Shown here piece after piece: positions 5,605 through 40,717 of a stretch of 64,000 bases of DNA. Within the stretch, counting starts at the first letter, position 1. Each line of letters begins with the position of its first letter. Made by a program: the position numbers and the translations under genes. Source of the stretch: Candidatus Thorarchaeota archaeon (GTDB taxonomy: Archaea; Asgardarchaeota; Thorarchaeia; Thorarchaeales; Thorarchaeaceae); the NCBI GenBank assembly GCA_004524445.1, contig SDNP01000014.1:1-64000 (forward strand), written 5' to 3'. The notes beneath the pieces were generated by a model. The model was not told where the DNA came from. It searched no databases and was given only the letters and a program-made list of their open reading frames with translations.

Positions 5605-6582
5605 GTGGTCGTATTGTCAATTGAGGTCGCCGCCATAGGAAGAATCAATGTGGATTTATCCTTGAATGTTGAATCGCTGCCTGCACCAGGCGATCACATT
5701 TTCAGCACACATTCTTCCGTTTCATTTGGTGGTTCAGCAGCCAACTTCTCAAGGCAACTTGCCAAACTCGGCGTTGAAGTGGCACTCTATGCATATGTTG
5801 GTGACGATATGTTTGGGAAAGCAGCTGCGAAGAGCCTCTCTGATAGTGGGGTAGATACTGAGGGTGTATTGATTCTCGAAAACCAGCCAACAGGTTTATT
5901 CTGCAATATCAAAGGACAAAATGGCCAGCAAATCATCATAGCCAATCAGGGGGCAAATCGCTTATTGGAGAAGCATGTTTTGGATGAAGACTATCTTACA
6001 CAGGCAAAGACAGTACATGTAGCCGGGGGGTTTCCTATGATAGCCAAGAGAGCTACAGAGTTGGCGACAACAGAGGGGATGATATTCTCTTTTGACCCGG
6101 GTAGAGCTGCATCAGATATAGATTTCTCAACCATCCTCCGGAGTACTGACTTGCTCTTCTTGAATCGCAGAGAATTAAAACAATATTTTGGTATCAAGCC
6201 ATCAGAGAGAGAGCTACGAAAAATTGCGAAAACCTTTCCCGGTATTGTTGTAGTTAAGATGGGAGAGGAGGGTGCAATTGCGACTGATGGTTTTCAATAC
6301 TGTACTTCACGTATCTTCGAGGTCACTGTTGCAGACACCCTAGGTGCTGGAGATGCTTTTGCTGCAGGCTTCGTGACGGCGTGGACGCGTTCTGAGGATA
6401 TAGAACAGGCACTCCACTTTGCGAACGCAGTAGCTGCACAGGCAATCGCAGAGGACGGAGCGCAGAATGGGCAACCGACTCTGGATGAAACAGCTCAATT
6501 TTTGCGAGACTATGGGATATACATTGATGATATCCTTCGCACCTTCAAGGGAAAAGGACGAAGACGTCGTTCACGTAAGTAA
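5605..6582 (+). CDS. PfkB/ribokinase-family carbohydrate kinase
   Basis: GGSAAN, VGDDMFG, DTLGAGDAF. Confidence 0.92.
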   Translation: MVVLSIEVAAIGRINVDLSLNVESLPAPGDHIFSTHSSVSFGGSAANFSRQLAKLGVEVALYAYVGDDMFGKAAAKSLSDSGVDTEGVLILENQPTGLFCNIKGQNGQQIIIANQGANRLLEKHVLDEDYLTQAKTVHVAGGFPMIAKRATELATTEGMIFSFDPGRAASDIDFSTILRSTDLLFLNRRELKQYFGIKPSERELRKIAKTFPGIVVVKMGEEGAIATDGFQYCTSRIFEVTVADTLGAGDAFAAGFVTAWTRSEDIEQALHFANAVAAQAIAEDGAQNGQPTLDETAQFLRDYGIYIDDILRTFKGKGRRRRSRK

Positions 6583-6648
6583 TACCTAGGTAGTATTGCA
6601 GTTTTTGTTAGTATAATACACTGCAGGGTTGACAAGTGTACAGAGAAG

Positions 6649-7791
6649 GTGCCAATAATACATCCGCTTCTTGAAGAGGTCTTGAATGGACCCTCTACCG
6701 CACGGGATTCCCGCTCAGGCCAAACCAATACTCGCGTAAATAACGGAGAAACAACCGATGAGGAACTAGCAGAGCTGCTTGAAACTGTCAGTGCCAGAAT
6801 TCTGGTGGCTGGAGTAGGAGGAGCAGGAAACAATGCGATTACACGCCTTATGGAGGTAGGCGTTCAGGGAGCCGAAACATTGGCAGTCAATACTGATGCC
6901 CAAGACCTGTATTTCTGCAATTCACATCATAAACTCCTTCTTGGGAAAGAGTGTTGTGGAGGGCTTGGGGCGGGAAACAATCCTGACTTAGGTGAAACCG
7001 CGGCATTGGAAACCTATGATGTGATCAAGGATGTGATACGTGGAGATTTGGTATTTGTCGCTGCAGGCATGGGAGGAGGAACAGGTACCGGTGCGGCTCC
7101 GCATATCGCCAAGGCAGCTAAGGAAAACGGTGCCCTTACAGTTGCGATAGTATGCCTTCCCTTTGAAGTGGAAGGGATTACACGGAGAAAAAATGCACGA
7201 CGAGGATTAAATGCATTAATGGAACATGTGGATACGCTGATTGCGATACCAAACGAAAAACTGCTGGAAATTGCGCCCGATTTATCATTACCCGAAGCAT
7301 TCATGGTGGCTGACGAAGTCCTAGTCCGCGCAGTAAAGGGCATAGCAGAGTTAATTTCAAAACCAGGATTAGTTAATCTGGACTTTGCTGACGTACGGAC
7401 CACAATGAAGAATGGTGGAGTTTCAATCATTGCTCTGGGAGAAGGGCAAGGGGAAGAAAGAGCAGAAGAGGCAGTCTATAATGCACTCAAGAATCCACTT
7501 ATTGATGTTTCAATTGAGAATGCCCGGAACATACTGGTGAATGTAAGTGGAAGTGCTGATCTTCAGCTCATGGAAGCCAAGCGTGTTGTGGAACTGGTTA
7601 CTGAACAAGTGAATCCTGATGCAGAGGTCATCTATGGCGCACTCATTGTGCCCGAGTTGGAAGATAAGCTTCGTGTAACGATTATTGCCTCCGGAGTTAG
7701 TTCTCCTTATGTCTTCGATGCGGGTTCTGAGCCAGTTACACCCCTTGCGGAAGATTTGAAATCTGACCTTGGAATACAAAAACTCGAATAA
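6649..7791 (+). CDS. ftsZ: Cell division protein FtsZ (FtsZ1-type locus)
   Basis: GVGGAGNNA, GMGGGTGTG, NLDFAD; upstream of secE-spt5. Confidence 0.96.
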   Translation: MPIIHPLLEEVLNGPSTARDSRSGQTNTRVNNGETTDEELAELLETVSARILVAGVGGAGNNAITRLMEVGVQGAETLAVNTDAQDLYFCNSHHKLLLGKECCGGLGAGNNPDLGETAALETYDVIKDVIRGDLVFVAAGMGGGTGTGAAPHIAKAAKENGALTVAIVCLPFEVEGITRRKNARRGLNALMEHVDTLIAIPNEKLLEIAPDLSLPEAFMVADEVLVRAVKGIAELISKPGLVNLDFADVRTTMKNGGVSIIALGEGQGEERAEEAVYNALKNPLIDVSIENARNILVNVSGSADLQLMEAKRVVELVTEQVNPDAEVIYGALIVPELEDKLRVTIIASGVSSPYVFDAGSEPVTPLAEDLKSDLGIQKLE

Positions 7792-33768: not shown

Positions 33769-34281
33769 ATGGATGCGATAACCCTGCGAGTGTTTGCCGT
33801 TTCCGGATTTTCTGGCACTGGGAAGACATCGTTGATTGAGGACCTGATTAAGGAGCTTAAGTCGCGAGGTTACTCAGTTTCGGTGGTAAAAAGTTCGAGA
33901 GAGGACATTGAACCTCCAAAGGGTACAGATACATATCGACACCTCACAGCATCAGCGAGTCCCGTTGTCCTTCTCGGACCAAATACCACAACTATCAGAT
34001 ATCAGCACAGATTGAATTCAGGGGCGATATTCTCGCAAGTTGATGCAGACATAGTTTTGCTAGAAGGCTTCAAATCAGCTCTTATTCCGCGCGTGTTCTG
34101 CGTGGGCAAACGCGGCCTCAATGAAGACACTATCCCAGAACAAACACATGCCATAGTAACTTGGAATAGGACAGATATGAAAAAACATAGTGAAATTCCA
34201 ATCCTCTATACAAGAGAGACTGACAGGATCGCGGATTTAATCCTACAGAATGCGGTCCAACCGAATCAAGTAGATTTCTAA
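33769..34281 (+). CDS. mobB: Molybdopterin-guanine dinucleotide biosynthesis protein B
   Basis: SGFSGTGKTSLIE, GTDTYRH, DIVLLEGFK. Confidence 0.9.
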   Translation: MDAITLRVFAVSGFSGTGKTSLIEDLIKELKSRGYSVSVVKSSREDIEPPKGTDTYRHLTASASPVVLLGPNTTTIRYQHRLNSGAIFSQVDADIVLLEGFKSALIPRVFCVGKRGLNEDTIPEQTHAIVTWNRTDMKKHSEIPILYTRETDRIADLILQNAVQPNQVDF

Positions 34282-34635: not shown

Positions 34636-35628
34636 ATGTTAACCGCCAAAATCGGAATAATTGGGATTGGCAACATGGGCCGGATTCATGCGCGAATACT
34701 GAGTAGTCTTGATTCTCTTGCAGGTGTAACGGATATAGACTTTGAAAATGCAAAGACAGTCGCAGAGAATTACGATGTGATGGCATACGAGGATTATAAT
34801 CACATGCTTGATGAGCTAGCGCTTGACGGGGTGATAGTTTCCACCCCTACTTCAACTCATGCAGACATAGCTACTGAAGTTGTGAACAATCATAACCTGA
34901 AGGGGATAATGATTGAGAAACCCTTGGCTAGTACTCTTATCGAAGGAGAGCAATTAATGAAATCCATCAGGAAGAAGGGGATGGGAGGAGTTGTTTGCCA
35001 TTCTGAAATATACAATCCAGTTGTTGATCGTGCCTTGGCAATGATTGGAGAAGGCGCCATTGGAGAAACCAAAGTGGCAATTCACGATCGTCGAGGATTT
35101 GTGCACCCGTCAAGGATTCCATCGCTAGGCGACGTATTCGAGGACTTGGGAGTACATGATTTCGATATTATGGCAAGGATGAACACGGGTCCTGCAAAAG
35201 TCTATGCACAAGGCAATCTAAGCGAGGGGGTATACAATTCAGGAACGGTCCTAGTGAAATTCAAGGATGGCGTACAGCATTCATTTCATCTCTCTAGAGA
35301 ATACGCGGGCAGAAGCCGATCTATGGATGTTTCTGGAACGAAGGGAGCATTGGTGTTAGATTTATTGGGCCAAATAATCAAGGTGAAGGACTTGGATCAA
35401 GAACCTTCGGCAGGCGATAGAACAATAAGATTGCCAGAGCGCGGTGCCACCATCAAGGTGTATGGAGAGCCAATTCTTGAAGCAATCAAAGATTTCATTC
35501 GTGTCATAAAGACAGGTTCGGAACCGATTGTAGGTTTAGAAGATGGGATTAATGCCCTTAGAGTAGTTGAGGCGGCACGAGAAAGTGCTAAGACTGGCGA
35601 TGTGATTGACCTCAAGATACACGGCTAG
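34636..35628 (+). CDS. Gfo/Idh/MocA-family oxidoreductase
   Basis: GIGNMG, STPTSTH, IEKP, DLGVHDFD. Confidence 0.92.
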   Translation: MLTAKIGIIGIGNMGRIHARILSSLDSLAGVTDIDFENAKTVAENYDVMAYEDYNHMLDELALDGVIVSTPTSTHADIATEVVNNHNLKGIMIEKPLASTLIEGEQLMKSIRKKGMGGVVCHSEIYNPVVDRALAMIGEGAIGETKVAIHDRRGFVHPSRIPSLGDVFEDLGVHDFDIMARMNTGPAKVYAQGNLSEGVYNSGTVLVKFKDGVQHSFHLSREYAGRSRSMDVSGTKGALVLDLLGQIIKVKDLDQEPSAGDRTIRLPERGATIKVYGEPILEAIKDFIRVIKTGSEPIVGLEDGINALRVVEAARESAKTGDVIDLKIHG

Positions 35629-37201
35629 TCCGCTCGCTCAAGAGATGGGATTTGGTGGCAGAAATAATCCTAACATCTAGCTTTGTGCCAATGGGAATCT
35701 CAGATTTTAGGATGATGGGTTTGTAAGAAAAATTGCGGGCCATCATACCACCTGTAGATCCCTTCTCAGTCACGATTGCCTGTCCTTCCCATCCGACCCA
35801 ATCCTTGTTTATTGATGCTGTCAATCGGTTTACGTATTTTGACAACTTCCTGCTTCTGTTTTTTTTCACTGTTGTGTCTGTTTTCTGGTCAGATTTAGAA
35901 GCCAATGTACCTGGTCGGTCGCCATACTTGGATATATTCACCAGGGTTGGCCGTGTTTCTTTAATCAACTCCATGGTCTTATCAAAGTCTTTGTCTGATT
36001 CTCCCGGAAAGCCAACTATGATATCAGTTGCAATAGTCGCCATGGGAAACCTGTTGCGAATGCTTTCAATCACTTTCACCCAATCTTCAACCACATAGCG
36101 CCTGCGCATAAGCCGTAGAATGTCATTGCTTCCTGATTGAATTGGAATATGGAAGAACTGGAAGAAGTGGCTTGATGTCATTGTATCTAGCAGGTCTGGT
36201 AGATATCCCTTGACCGCATTGGGGTTGAACATGCCCAATCTGAATCGATGTGTCCCTTGTATTTCATCTAGTGCACTAAGAAGCTGGGGAAGCGTTTCAG
36301 AAGTATCAAATCCATAAACACCGGTGTCTTGACCTGTCAATCGAATCTCCTTATAGCCAAGATGAACACATCTCTTTGCAATATCCATTATTTCGGAGAT
36401 TGGATAACTGTTCAACTCCTCGCGGGCAAATTTCACTGCACAATAGGCACACTCACCGATACAACCCTCAGCTATCGGGATTGTACAAATGACTGACTGA
36501 GGTGGGCCCTCAAAGTATTGGAGTTTAGATTCCGAATCCGATGATAGATGTTCTATACCTCTCTCACCCCTCAGGATTCTATTGAGAATTTCAGGTAGAG
36601 TAGTGATACACTGAGGCCCAACAATGGCCCCGAAATTAGGTATTGCACGTCGTACTCTATTCAAGGAGATTTTTGGAAGACATCCCGCTACTACAACAGG
36701 AAGAGAAAGCTCGGCTAATTCACTTAGGCGATAGATGATACGGTCCTCAGTCGGTTCCTTGACTCCGCATGTATTCACAATCATGATATCAGCGAGTTCG
36801 GGGTCCGAGACCCTTTTTGCACCCAATCGATTCAGATGGCCGGCTATTAGGTCGGAGTCAGCAGTATTTAAGGCACAGCCGTAGGTTTCCAAATAATACT
36901 TGATATCCACTGGAATCGCACTCCCCCCCTGGATGTGAGGGAGAATTGTGATGGTGTCCCCCTCATTCACCGGCGTATTCCATCCATCTAGTCGACCAAT
37001 TTCTTTTCTATTCAACAGAATAATGAGATTGCCACTAATGCCGTCTGAATTCATAATTAGACGACGAACTCTCTTACCGTATCGCTTTGCCATGTCATGA
37101 ATAACATAACCAACAGAAGATTCGGGTGGTACATCCACCGCTATGGTCTTCGAACCTATCTCTCGCCTGATAGGACCGAAGAATTTGATATTCACTTTCA
37201 T
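35612..37201 (-). CDS. mtaB: MoaD/SAMP ubiquitin-like domain fused to an archaeal MtaB/CDKAL1-type tRNA methylthiotransferase
   Basis: aa 1-93 beta-grasp (VNIKFFG..R, LNRKEI..LDG..TPV.EGD.ITILP.IQGG), then ETYGC, NTC, AGC, CxxxCxxC (CIGECAYC), IPIQSGSN, TDIIVGFPGE, TRAM tail. Confidence 0.9.
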   Translation of the reverse strand: MKVNIKFFGPIRREIGSKTIAVDVPPESSVGYVIHDMAKRYGKRVRRLIMNSDGISGNLIILLNRKEIGRLDGWNTPVNEGDTITILPHIQGGSAIPVDIKYYLETYGCALNTADSDLIAGHLNRLGAKRVSDPELADIMIVNTCGVKEPTEDRIIYRLSELAELSLPVVVAGCLPKISLNRVRRAIPNFGAIVGPQCITTLPEILNRILRGERGIEHLSSDSESKLQYFEGPPQSVICTIPIAEGCIGECAYCAVKFAREELNSYPISEIMDIAKRCVHLGYKEIRLTGQDTGVYGFDTSETLPQLLSALDEIQGTHRFRLGMFNPNAVKGYLPDLLDTMTSSHFFQFFHIPIQSGSNDILRLMRRRYVVEDWVKVIESIRNRFPMATIATDIIVGFPGESDKDFDKTMELIKETRPTLVNISKYGDRPGTLASKSDQKTDTTVKKNRSRKLSKYVNRLTASINKDWVGWEGQAIVTEKGSTGGMMARNFSYKPIILKSEIPIGTKLDVRIISATKSHLLSERTSRVS

Positions 37202-37232: not shown

Positions 37233-37613
37233 CTATTCGGATTCTTGATACTTCTCGATTAGCTCGTCAACCATTGATTCTACAATGGAAATAATCTTCT
37301 CGATAAGCTCCCAGGAGGCATCTTCTACATGAATACCAACGGCAACGACAACAGTTACTTCAAGTGCTTCGGATAGTTTCTCTGCAGCAGAATTTGCCAG
37401 TACATAGTCTTTGTGACCCGGGGACGTTATGGTATTCACGCTTATTGTGGTAGCGTCTCTATAATGGCTTTTTGTGGGGTAGGCCAGGGCGACACCGCCA
37501 ATATGAGATTCATCGCCGCCATAGATTCGAACAAGTATGTCTTTGCCCACCCTTTCACTCTGGAGTATCATCTCATGCGAGTTGGCATTTCTACGAATCA
37601 CAATTGGATTCAT
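37233..37613 (-). CDS. LpdD/PAC4-like small protein
   Basis: VGKD....YGG...HIGGVALA, PGHKD, VVVAVGIHVEDA; start refined to ATG 37613. Confidence 0.7.
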   Translation of the reverse strand: MNPIVIRRNANSHEMILQSERVGKDILVRIYGGDESHIGGVALAYPTKSHYRDATTISVNTITSPGHKDYVLANSAAEKLSEALEVTVVVAVGIHVEDASWELIEKIISIVESMVDELIEKYQESE

Positions 37614-37614
37614 A

Positions 37615-39171
37615 TCAGTCTTCATCCTCCTGTTGCTGATGCATACGCCAAGACAGGGTTAAGGTCTTCGGATGAGCTGCCCGATATTCGTCAAGTAATC
37701 CAATGGCTGTGGAATGAGGTGCTACCTTTACCTTTTCGGGTTCATCATATGCCTCATCCGAGATTTTTTGATACACCGCAATCATATCATCGAGACTATC
37801 TTTCGTTTCAACTTCAGTAGGCTCTATCATTAGCGCTTCATCAACAATGAGAGGGAAGTAGACAGTGGGGGCATGTATGCCATAATCCAGCAATCTTTTG
37901 GCGATATGCTTTGCAGTTACCTCAGTTTCATCCTTCATTTCCTCAGCTGAGATTACGCACTCATGCATCCGTGGAGCGTTTTGGGAGTAAGGCAGTGTAA
38001 AACCGCGTATTTTGCTGATATGTCTCGCAACATAATTGGCATTGAGAACAGCTGCCTTAGAGGTTGCAAAAAGGCCATCTTTCCCTAGAGCATAAATGTA
38101 TGAATAAGCCCTGACAAGTACACCGAAGTTTCCGTAGAAGCCGTGTACCTTGCCAATCGAGTTTGGAAGATCGTAATCAAGAGTGAAAATACCATTCTCA
38201 TCTCGCCGTATTCTAGGTACAGGAAGGTATTCTGCAAGTTTTTCTTTGACGCCAACCGGTCCTGCCCCGGGGCCTCCACCACCATGCGGAGTTGAAAAGG
38301 TCTTGTGCAAATTGAGATGTACTACATCAAAGCCCATATCTCCCGGACGTACAACACCCATAATTGCGTTGAAGTTTGCACCATCATAGTAAAGCAAGCC
38401 ACCTGCATCATGAACAATTCCCGCTATTTCAGCGATATCCTTCTCAAAAACACCGATGGTATTGGGATTGGTAAGCATCAAACCAGCAGTCTTTGGGCCA
38501 GCAACCTCCTTCAGGGCTTCAATATCAACTCTTCCTTCATCATTAGATGGAATGACGACAACCTCATAACCAGCCATGGAGGCAGATGCTGGATTAGTTC
38601 CATGCGCAGAATCTGGAATCAGCATCTCATTTCTCTGGTCGCATTCATCGGACACACATTTGTGGTATTCTCGAATTACGAGGACGCCAGTAAGCTCACC
38701 TTGAGCGCCTGCGGGAGGCTGAAGAGTAACTGCATCCATGCCAGTTATTGCACCTAACCATTTCTCGAGTTCCCACATCAGTTCAAGGGCACCCTGTGTT
38801 GTAGATGTGTCCTGATATGGATGTAACCTTGCAAAGCCCGGAAGGGACGCAGCCCAATCATTCTCAGCAGGATTATACTTCATGGTACAGCTTCCCAGAG
38901 GGTAAGTACCTTGACTCACTGAGAAGTTCATCTGGGATAGCCTAGTGAAGTGGCGGACAATGGTGGGTTCAGATACTTCAGGAATGCTCGGAGGGCTTTT
39001 TCGTTTCATCACAGATGGAATCACTGAATCGAGATTGCCGACCACATCTTGAATTGCTGGTGGGATTGCTGGAAATTGATGTCCAATAACTCCTGGACTC
39101 GTCTTCTCAAAGATAATAGGCTCGCTCCATTTGGCTTGCCGATACTTTTCAGAACTCGGTTTGTTTGACAT
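37615..39171 (-). CDS. gcvPB: Glycine dehydrogenase subunit 2
   Basis: YPLGSCTMKYNP, SAHGTNPASA, HLNLHKTFSTPHGGGGPG. Confidence 0.96.
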   Translation of the reverse strand: MSNKPSSEKYRQAKWSEPIIFEKTSPGVIGHQFPAIPPAIQDVVGNLDSVIPSVMKRKSPPSIPEVSEPTIVRHFTRLSQMNFSVSQGTYPLGSCTMKYNPAENDWAASLPGFARLHPYQDTSTTQGALELMWELEKWLGAITGMDAVTLQPPAGAQGELTGVLVIREYHKCVSDECDQRNEMLIPDSAHGTNPASASMAGYEVVVIPSNDEGRVDIEALKEVAGPKTAGLMLTNPNTIGVFEKDIAEIAGIVHDAGGLLYYDGANFNAIMGVVRPGDMGFDVVHLNLHKTFSTPHGGGGPGAGPVGVKEKLAEYLPVPRIRRDENGIFTLDYDLPNSIGKVHGFYGNFGVLVRAYSYIYALGKDGLFATSKAAVLNANYVARHISKIRGFTLPYSQNAPRMHECVISAEEMKDETEVTAKHIAKRLLDYGIHAPTVYFPLIVDEALMIEPTEVETKDSLDDMIAVYQKISDEAYDEPEKVKVAPHSTAIGLLDEYRAAHPKTLTLSWRMHQQQEDED

Positions 39172-40568
39172 TAGTCTATACCTCCGGGTTGAAGAATTTC
39201 TTCAATGATTTTCGCTAGTTCATCAATTGTTTCTTTATTATGCATCTCAGTGACACTCAGCAACATTGACTCGCCTAAATGTGGAAAGTCTTCAGACAAT
39301 AAACGCCCACCATGGAATCCCTCAGAGAGGAGCTTCTTGTGAACTTCTGTCGCCTGAGCATTTTCAAATCGAATAACGAAATCCTGCCAGATGCTACTGC
39401 CAATAGCCGGAGCCGTCACACCTGAGATATCATTCAGTATCTTTGCGGCGTAATGAGATTGGTAGGCAATGTTTTTACTTAATTCCTGAATCCCATTTCG
39501 GCCAAGTAACGATGTGTATATCGCCGCTGTGACAGCCATGAGAGCTTGATTGGTGCAAATATTGCTGGTCGCCTTTTCGCGCCGAATATGTTGCTCTCGA
39601 GCACTCAAGGTGAGAGTATAACCCTGTTCATAAGGCTCTTCTTCTGTTCTTGTAAGGCCTACAAGGCGGCCAGGCATTTGGTAGACCAGTTTTCTCTCCA
39701 TTTTACATCCAAAGACGCCCAATAGAGGACCTCCATAACTCATGTCGATCCCAAGAGGCTGTCCCTCCGCAATCACAATATCAGCATCGTAATCCCCTGG
39801 CGGACGAAGCAGACCCAGTGATAGAACGTTAACACCAACCACCAAGAGGGCACCCGCTTCATGTACTAGTTTGGATATGTCATCCACTTGTGTTTCTATG
39901 AATCCAAGGTATGACGGATTTTCAAGATACACTCCTGCAACATCTTCATCCAATTTGGCATCCAAATCAGATAGTGACAGTAGGCCCGTGCCTTTGTCAT
40001 AATCAATTTTCTCAAGAGTGATATCTGCAGGTTCCGCGTATGTCTTGGCGACTTGGTAGTGCTCCGGTTTTATTGTTCCGGGAACCAAGAATTTTGATGA
40101 CCTCTTGACTCGCGATGCCATCCTTAATGCTTCACCTAGACTCGTAGCCATGTCATACATGCTACTATTTACAACATCCAAATCCAGAATTTCTGCCAAC
40201 AGACTCTGATACTCAAAAAGAGTCTGGAGCATGCCCTGACTTATTTCGGCTTGATATGAGGTATAGGATGTAACAAACTCTGATCGAGATGCTAGAGACT
40301 TCACTACTGCCGGGACATAGTGTATTCCGGCACCGGCGCCGAGGAATGATCTCCCATCCTCCGTTAGTGCATTCTTTGAGGCTAGTTCTTTGAGCCGCTT
40401 TGTAACCTCCATCTCTGAATGGGGGCGTGGAAGGTCTACCTCCTTGTGCAGCCTAAGTTTCTCAGGTACATCTCTGAATAGCTCGTCGATATCGTCCAAT
40501 CCAATCGAGTTCAAAATATCTTCTTGGGAGTCATCTGTCATTGGAATCCAGGGGTGTTTATAGCTCAT
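39171..40568 (-). CDS. gcvPA: Glycine dehydrogenase subunit 1
   Basis: TSYTSYQAEISQG, REQHIRREKATSNICTNQ. Confidence 0.96.
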   Translation of the reverse strand: MSYKHPWIPMTDDSQEDILNSIGLDDIDELFRDVPEKLRLHKEVDLPRPHSEMEVTKRLKELASKNALTEDGRSFLGAGAGIHYVPAVVKSLASRSEFVTSYTSYQAEISQGMLQTLFEYQSLLAEILDLDVVNSSMYDMATSLGEALRMASRVKRSSKFLVPGTIKPEHYQVAKTYAEPADITLEKIDYDKGTGLLSLSDLDAKLDEDVAGVYLENPSYLGFIETQVDDISKLVHEAGALLVVGVNVLSLGLLRPPGDYDADIVIAEGQPLGIDMSYGGPLLGVFGCKMERKLVYQMPGRLVGLTRTEEEPYEQGYTLTLSAREQHIRREKATSNICTNQALMAVTAAIYTSLLGRNGIQELSKNIAYQSHYAAKILNDISGVTAPAIGSSIWQDFVIRFENAQATEVHKKLLSEGFHGGRLLSEDFPHLGESMLLSVTEMHNKETIDELAKIIEEILQPGGID

Positions 40569-40717
40569 GTTGGGTATCACCAGGTTGATTAGCTACTTGT
40601 GGATGCGAGAGGCCATCCCAATAGGCTTTTTGATTTGTAGCTTCATTGAACAGTCGGGCTTGGAATTGTTTTTAAGTGCTAAGAAGATGACCCGAACGAC
40701 TGGAGGTTGCGTACAAG

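Follow-up and report, generated by a model that had tools for sequence, protein, structure and literature searches.

The fused gene and its domains

The window considered here is a stretch of 64,000 nucleotides from a Candidatus Thorarchaeota archaeon (assembly GCA_004524445.1, contig SDNP01000014.1, positions 1 to 64,000 of the forward strand). On its minus strand, a single open reading frame (ORF) joins a ubiquitin-like protein (Ubl) of the MoaD type, here called the carrier, through its Gly-Gly (GG) motif to a methylthiotransferase (MTTase) of the e-MtaB type. Few genomic signs of joint action between two proteins are as strong as a fusion of their genes, and eukaryotic ubiquitin is itself made as fusions. 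For MiaB, MtaB, RimO and human CDKAL1, both the sulfur supply and the reloading of the auxiliary cluster after each turnover are unsettled. The parts of the fused gene are as follows:

35612-37201, minus strand: fused ORF P0001 of 529 amino acids, consisting of a MoaD-type Ubl, a linker and an e-MtaB methylthiotransferase
36923-37201, minus strand: Ubl domain (ThiS/MoaD beta-grasp), residues 1-93, ending in LPHIQGG (Pfam, NCBIfam, PDB profiles, AlphaFold2 (AF2) and the ratio of nonsynonymous to synonymous substitution rates, dN/dS)
36923-36929, minus strand: run of seven G (G7) holding the Gly codons 92-93 (nt 36923-36928); Shine-Dalgarno-like sequence GGGGAGTG, 8 nt before an internal GTG
36902-36922, minus strand: linker, residues 94-100 (SAIPVDI), corresponding to the former stop codon and intergenic spacer and holding the GTG at 36910-36908 (junction comparison with relatives)
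36617-36901, minus strand: UPF0004 (MTTase N-terminal) domain, residues 101-195, with the auxiliary-cluster cysteines C109, C145 and C174 (Pfam)
35963-36481, minus strand: radical SAM core, residues 241-413, with C247-x3-C251-x2-C254 (Pfam; profile match to MiaB)
35642-35779, minus strand: TRAM-like C-terminal beta domain, residues 475-520 (Pfam TRAM below its cut-off, cover by TIGR01578, AF2 strands at 472-524)

The carrier is matched by Pfam ThiS over residues 5-93 (31.8 bits; cut-off 22.5) and by NCBIfam TIGR01687 (moaD_arch) over residues 1-93 (57.1 bits; cut-off 49.5), and it scores 48.8 bits against the SAMP1 equivalog NF041918, under the cut-off of 60. Its closest profiles in the PDB are those of 2m19, Ta0895 (2g1e) and the SAMP1 homologue of M. 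acetivorans (2l52), with E-values from 3e-16 to 1e-12. The columns of G92 and G93 are invariant among 24 carrier orthologues, and judged by the signatures SGNLI..LN and LPH[VI]QGG, the carrier forms a subfamily of its own that is tied to mtaB.

The enzyme half is matched by NCBIfam TIGR01578, the e-MtaB family, with 384.7 bits (cut-off 314.7), over residues 101-521 of the protein and positions 1-417 of the 421 in the model. Each of the six cysteines (C109, C145, C174, C247, C251 and C254) falls at an invariant column in an alignment of 41 MtaB sequences. The solved structures nearest to this half in a profile search are those of MiaB (7mjv, E 1.2e-44) and RimO. The Pfam TRAM match over residues 475-520 is weak (16.3 bits against a cut-off of 21), and the TIGR01578 match spans the region. 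From the family match and the cysteines, the MtaB half is predicted to be the enzyme that forms 2-methylthio-N6-threonylcarbamoyladenosine (ms2t6A). A search for UPF0004 genes in the host genome, which is 90% complete, found no MTTase gene besides the fusion.

The carrier end ILPHIQGG is followed by SAIPVDIK and then by the first strand of MtaB, which leaves a linker of about 7-8 residues. As encoded, G93 is peptide-bonded to S94, so that it has no free C-terminal carboxylate for adenylation. An AF2 model built with an alignment of 61 rows has a mean predicted local distance difference test score (pLDDT) of 93.8 and a predicted template modelling score (pTM) of 0.79, with the carrier as a confident beta-grasp. 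The pLDDT falls below 50 only at residues 91-95 (QGGSA), which fits a flexible GG tail and linker start. The first-pass annotation had described a single ORF at 35612-37201 with a carrier of 93 amino acids ending in ILPHIQGG, a SAIP linker, and a full MtaB/CDKAL1-type enzyme with six Fe-S cysteines. The ORF and the Pfam and NCBIfam matches confirm the carrier, and the full-length TIGR01578 match and the invariant columns confirm the enzyme. Both of the features to which it had drawn attention, the run of seven G at 36923-36929 and the GTG in frame at 36910, are also present.

Reality and origin of the fusion

The junction sits in the G7 homopolymer, and an assembly or sequencing artefact, or else a decaying pseudogene, had to be considered as the explanation of the fusion. 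A sister species, however, encodes a protein (P0002) of 529 amino acids with 84% amino acid identity to P0001, identical architecture and the same gene neighbourhood; it was found in three independent assemblies, namely the metagenome-assembled genome GCA_964648855.1 at NCBI and the Logan assemblies of SRR7048227 and SRR7048220. At the junction, this gene has CAG GGA GGC AAT (CAGGGAGGCAAT), with GGAGGC in place of the G7 run, and a homopolymer is thus not needed to explain the fusion. In the window, removing or adding one G in the run brings a stop codon 17 or 21 residues past the GG, respectively, and not directly after it, as the first-pass annotation had reasoned. That annotation had also held that a stop codon after the GG in close relatives, or loss of the GG, would count against the fusion; the sister species keeps both the fusion and the GG, with no stop codon between the halves. 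A homopolymer error as the source of the fusion was ruled out by the junction of the sister species, which has no G run, together with the failure of either one-base change to restore a stop at the GG. Selection conserves both halves alike (see below), and no MTTase gene other than the fusion was found in the genome; both facts also speak against decay. An artefact or pseudogene is thus extremely improbable, and it is virtually certain that the fusion is real and derived from a conserved gene pair.

At a dS of about 0.76 between the two fused genes, dN/dS is 0.119 over residues 1-93, 0.106 over MtaB and 0.67 over the linker block 94-101. The LPHIQGG end is identical in 7 of 7 residues between the sister species and the window, and the linker block 94-101 in 3 of 8. 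Conservation of the carrier against divergence of the linker means that conservation stops exactly at the Gly-Gly, and both the carrier and the MtaB half have been under purifying selection since the fusion.

The relatives of the locus are, by their source names, Thorarchaeota (Asgard). In the more distant of them, a ThiS-family gene for a protein of 91-94 amino acids lies 8 nt upstream of an mtaB gene for one of 429-431 amino acids, and the cluster has the order Trm112 / gcvPA-gcvPB-LpdD(PAC_bac)-carrier-mtaB / GFO oxidoreductase. The family was sampled with 18 genomes from 16 genera, and every one of them has the carrier gene immediately ahead of mtaB. The two are fused only in the genus of the window; in six genera, they are already in frame, with one or two stop codons between them. 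A survey made with an alignment of 13 closer carrier sequences gave 60 species-level loci with this carrier subfamily. In 57 of these, mtaB follows the carrier at a distance of 7-20 nt; one, that of the sister species, carries the fusion, and two have no mtaB nearby. The latter two (L065 and L085) have a subfamily carrier ending in GG plus T, with no mtaB within 2-3 kb downstream, and represent either a rearranged pair or a paralogue. L012 holds an unfused pair, at 5711-5989 and 6001-7296. Beyond the family, the pair occurs in other Asgard families: in 5/5 sampled genomes of f7, in 6/6 of f19 and in at least one genome of f16, and the two genes lie nearby in f10.

The relatives show how the fusion came about. 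Their GG codons and stop codon (GGAGGATAG, GGCGGTTAGGTG and similar) form a Shine-Dalgarno-like sequence for mtaB, and the ancestral pair was probably translationally coupled. The GTG at 36910-36908 of the window lies at the exact position of the ancestral mtaB start codon. To form the fusion, the stop codon was lost and the spacer changed in length, so that the genes came into one frame. The MtaB phylogeny is a quick tree, in which the two fused sequences form one clade with a support of 100 on a long stem; the fusion therefore arose once, on the stem of the genus.

The ancestral start site bears on what is translated at the locus today. The first-pass annotation had suggested that the G-rich run could act as a ribosome-binding site for the internal GTG, with both fused and free MtaB being made. 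For the window, the suggestion is supported by the GTG at the ancestral start site and by the Shine-Dalgarno-like run. It fails in the sister species, which has TTA at this position and no canonical start codon ahead of the first beta strand; MtaB is consequently made there only as the fusion or its cleavage product, and dual expression is not a general solution. In its strong form, this idea states that the relevant product of the window is free MtaB started at GTG 36910 behind the G-rich run, with the read-through fusion being largely irrelevant. The position of the GTG, 8 nt past GGGGAGTG, and the mtaB Shine-Dalgarno-like sequence formed by the GG and stop codons of the relatives are in its favor. 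Against it stand the missing start in the sister species and the dN/dS of 0.12 for the carrier domain, and if the fusion were not cleaved, no free carrier would be produced. We regard this explanation as quite improbable.

Fusions of the carrier with an MTTase were also sought in other organisms. A word search of 5.8 billion proteins with residues 1-100, directed at proteins of 290-926 amino acids, found such a fusion only in this genus, and a carrier profile run against longer proteins of the same collection by word search found none outside it. In an exhaustive phmmer search of 1.84 billion representatives with the junction-spanning residues 1-135, the fusion was again confined to the genus among the best 150 of 466 matches. 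P0139, which appeared to align past the GG, was rejected as a carrier with an unrelated tail. The sole other long proteins related to the carrier profile are P0121 and P0122, which are ThiS-ThiF-rhodanese triple fusions of about 485 amino acids. Three MoaD-like proteins from other organisms (P0165, P0240 and P0170) continue for 45-130 residues past a first GG and have a second GG at their end (...RAGG / ...RTGG); these may be tandem or precursor forms.

Possible processing after the Gly-Gly motif

It was reported that JAMM proteases cleave natural MoaD-MoaE fusions and thereby expose the C-terminal Gly (PMC8832034), and another study likewise describes JAMM cleavage of linear SAMP fusions and MoaD-MoaE fusions with exposure of the terminal Gly (PMC4443979). 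The host genome was searched for the E1 (UbaA) and JAMM genes that the first-pass annotation had proposed to look for, and both were found. One gene of the Prok-JAB family (P0123, at G000:C8:30453-30776; 62.9 bits) has the motif HSHPGKPRPSGRD (HSH...PSGRD) and is a homologue of PfJAMM1 from Pyrococcus (5lda; E 4e-13). Two genes encode E1 proteins of the ThiF family (249 and 221 bits), and one of these adjoins another Ubl gene; the E1 genes lie at C6:73998-74690 and C53:30224-30928.

The ends of the unfused carriers were compared across the paired species. The carrier ends exactly at the GG in 51 of 57, and the remaining six have tails past it. Tails seen in Thorarchaeota are R, GG, EW, RW, GR, V, GVSDA, GGDYSWM and one of 11 residues. 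In all six genomes of genus g38 of family f19 (L107-L111 and L117), the carrier continues for 9-14 residues past the GG (e.g., GG-SLHTLHLFF and GG-TDSNPFAGMLR), and a propeptide on the mtaB-adjacent carrier is a conserved state in this genus. Extensions past the GG have been tolerated repeatedly in the carrier orthologue group. In one Thorarchaeota assembly (L049:646-918), the A before the stop codon seems to have been lost (GGGGGATAG in relatives, GGGGGTAG in L049), which gives a carrier tail of 11 residues overlapping the mtaB start; the change may be real or a homopolymer error.

The host genome holds seven ThiS-family genes, none of which is obviously a subunit of molybdopterin synthase. 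One of the paralogues (L003, at G000:C5:17417-17644, plus strand) encodes a ThiS-family Ubl in which ...FPPVGGG is followed by MQHESR, and it would likewise need C-terminal processing. By analogy with the MoaD-MoaE fusions, and with the flexible junction and the tails past the GG in orthologues and a paralogue as indirect evidence, cleavage of the window's fusion after Gly93 is considered somewhat more probable than its absence.

Proposed function and its alternatives

The near-universal unfused pair in Thorarchaeota and its recurrence in other Asgard families strongly support, at the genomic level, the link between Ubl sulfur relay and ms2t6A synthesis that the first-pass annotation had read from the fusion as a Rosetta stone; the biochemical steps of that link are proposed. 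A functional coupling of the carrier and MtaB is likely. The first-pass annotation had offered the link and a polyprotein cleaved at the GG as alternatives; both fit, and they fit better as one story than separately.

According to this story, the fusion would be a precursor that the PfJAMM1-like metalloprotease cuts after Gly93, as with MoaD-MoaE fusions, and the cut would release carrier and enzyme in equal amounts. One of the two E1 proteins (ThiF/UbaA-like) would then adenylate and thiocarboxylate the freed carrier, whose flexible GG-COSH tail would hand its sulfur to MtaB's auxiliary [4Fe-4S] cluster at the unique iron, in the manner of TtuB and TtuA. The delivered sulfur would be methylated by S-adenosylmethionine (SAM), and radical chemistry would place the methylthio group on C2 of N6-threonylcarbamoyladenosine at position 37 (t6A37). 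In the window, the GTG at 36910 with the G-rich Shine-Dalgarno-like run upstream may add some free MtaB. The last steps follow two current models for enzymes of the MiaB family (PMC8584467; PMC10702137). The sulfur source of the auxiliary cluster in this family is described as unsettled, and an intermediate of the [4Fe-5S] type has been discussed for the TtuA/Ncs6 and MiaB families (PMC8584467). A structure prediction for a complex of carrier 1-93, MtaB 99-529 and two 4Fe-4S clusters had a score of 0.00, which weighs neither way on binding.

Several observations count against the precursor and sulfur-donor proposal. The cleavage, thiocarboxylation and sulfur transfer are steps that we infer, and the sulfur link itself is drawn from the pairing of the genes. 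The JAMM and E1 genes lie on contigs other than that of the fusion, and JAMM occurs in 17 of the 18 family genomes, with fused and unfused carriers alike; since its distribution is independent of the fusion, it permits the cleavage model but does not discriminate between explanations. With only two fused sequences in existence, a single comparison supports the claim that the GG stayed conserved once the genes had fused. Many of the sampled Asgard families lack the carrier-mtaB pairing. Finally, Thermococcus kodakarensis deprived of all three of its Ubls keeps normal ms2t6A and 2-methylthio-N6-hydroxynorvalylcarbamoyladenosine (ms2hn6A) (PMC11323500), which excludes a universal Ubl requirement of archaeal MtaB, so that any dependence would be lineage-specific. 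On balance, a precursor whose carrier becomes a sulfur donor is the best explanation, and it is given an even chance of being right. That the carrier donates sulfur to MtaB is credible, though judged somewhat less probable than not. It can be suggested only tentatively that a MoaD-type Ubl dedicated to the task serves Thorarchaeota and some further Asgard archaea as the physiological sulfur donor, loading the auxiliary cluster of a CDKAL1-type MTTase, and that in this genus it is made as a JAMM-cut precursor.

The fusion might instead act uncleaved, the Ubl being an accessory or regulatory module of MtaB, such as a docking site, an autoinhibitory lid, or an aid to folding and stability, and not a thiocarboxylate donor. 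In favor of this explanation, purifying selection preserves a carrier that is peptide-bonded to MtaB, and the sister species lacks an internal start. Covalent linkage of SAMP1 to MoaE was reported to inhibit molybdopterin synthase, so that linkage can regulate (PMC4443979), and the independence of ms2t6A from Ubls in T. kodakarensis points in the same direction (PMC11323500). The invariant LPH[VI]QGG end in both fused proteins, however, and the drop of conservation at the GG fit a tail that needs to be exposed; 51 of the 57 paired species stop the carrier precisely at the GG, and the GG tail and linker start are predicted to be flexible. An uncleaved, regulatory role is therefore regarded as rather unlikely. 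The carrier could also be a protein modifier of the SAMPylation or urmylation type, which after its release would be conjugated to MtaB or further proteins and might act in their turnover, along with the product of the adjacent gene of the LpdD/PAC-like family (PAC, proteasome-assembly chaperone). Archaeal Ubls of the MoaD/SAMP1 type are dual-function proteins according to an earlier survey, which also gives a ThiS-PAC2 link in Thermoplasma (PMC2948915), and the conserved upstream neighbour of the carrier is the PAC-like gene. The locus, though, is without linked conjugation machinery, the pairing occurs in other families without the PAC-like gene, and sulfur chemistry is a simpler account of translational coupling to a sulfur-inserting enzyme; a modifier role is accordingly held to be improbable.

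A role of the carrier as the MoaD subunit of molybdopterin synthase in molybdenum cofactor synthesis was set aside, as a search of the host genome (90% complete) for MoaE found none.

Relation to known systems

Fusions of a Ubl with an enzyme are known in kind, and the MtaB partner is new. The closest precedents are the MoaD-MoaE fusions (Deinococcus DR2607/DR0402 and Haloferax SAMP1-MoaE/HvJAMM1; Narrandes et al. 2015, cited in PMC8832034), in which a MoaD-family Ubl is likewise N-terminal and joined through its GG to the enzyme of an adjacent gene. As in those systems, the JAMM gene stands alone, and cleavage would be needed to free the carboxylate for E1. Unlike them, the partner is a radical SAM methylthiotransferase, the fusion is found in one genus only, and its cleavage is one that we infer.

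A second parallel is provided by TtuB/TtuA and Urm1/Ncs6, where a Ubl is also genetically tied to a tRNA sulfur-insertion enzyme whose cluster offers a free iron site. Similar chemistry is proposed here, with transfer from the thiocarboxylate to the cluster and a shared [4Fe-5S] state that has been discussed (PMC8584467). The MTTase differs from TtuA and Ncs6, which are PP-loop ATPases, in being a radical SAM enzyme; the product is ms2t6A37 instead of 2-thiouridine (s2U), and for MtaB the transfer is a proposal drawn from the genes. With the e-MtaB/CDKAL1 proteins (TIGR01578), the enzyme half shares the UPF0004 and radical SAM layout, a possible TRAM-like C-terminus and the six cysteines, and it differs in the N-terminal Ubl. 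The carrier resembles archaeal MoaD/SAMP1 proteins in its beta-grasp, its length of about 93 residues and its GG end, and differs from them in that the GG is internal and the SAMP1 equivalog score is below the cut-off.

In 2010, Makarova and Koonin used gene neighbourhoods and fusions to predict that Ubls take part in tRNA thiolation; their paper gives links of ThiS with TRAM (Pyrococci) and with PAC2 (Thermoplasma) and mentions a methylthioadenine synthetase (PMC2948915). A term search of that paper found neither adjacency nor fusion of ThiS and MtaB (PMC2948915), and the study is older than the Asgard genomes. Neither a pair nor a fusion of ThiS/MoaD with MtaB turned up in a literature search, whose incomplete coverage makes this weak evidence of novelty. 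Standing on top of a family-wide pair that is seen in several other families, the fusion names a concrete candidate sulfur donor for methylthiotransferases. If the proposal is true, this would be the first protein sulfur donor for any enzyme of the MiaB family, and its hosts would be the archaea most closely related to eukaryotes. Natural precursors of a Ubl and an enzyme would gain, besides MoaD-MoaE, a second kind with this fusion, from archaea near the eukaryotic lineage, and were the carrier only regulatory, MtaB would still be a new partner for a Ubl.

Neighbouring genes

The fusion is flanked in the window by the following genes:

37233-37625, minus strand: gene of the LpdD/PAC_bac-like family (proteasome-assembly-chaperone-like fold), 31 nt upstream of the fusion; the carrier's upstream neighbour in the whole family
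37615-40580, minus strand: glycine dehydrogenase P-protein subunits, gcvPB (37615-39171) and gcvPA (39171-40580); conserved upstream cluster, with Pfam GDC-P found on the syntenic genes of L008, L011 and L012 and the window copies assigned by ORF and synteny
34636-35628, plus strand: GFO/IDH/MocA oxidoreductase gene, convergent with the fusion; the two 3' ends share 17 nt (35612-35628); same arrangement in relatives

In Thermoplasma, a ThiS-PAC2 link had been described in 2010; Ta0895 ranks second among the solved relatives of the carrier. A MobB-like P-loop gene lies in the window at 33769-34281. In families f19 and f7, a GTPase gene of the CobW/HypB/UreG type, a metallochaperone family, is divergent from the carrier-mtaB pair (L107:2344-3000, L109:2302-2985 and L113:1549-2238).

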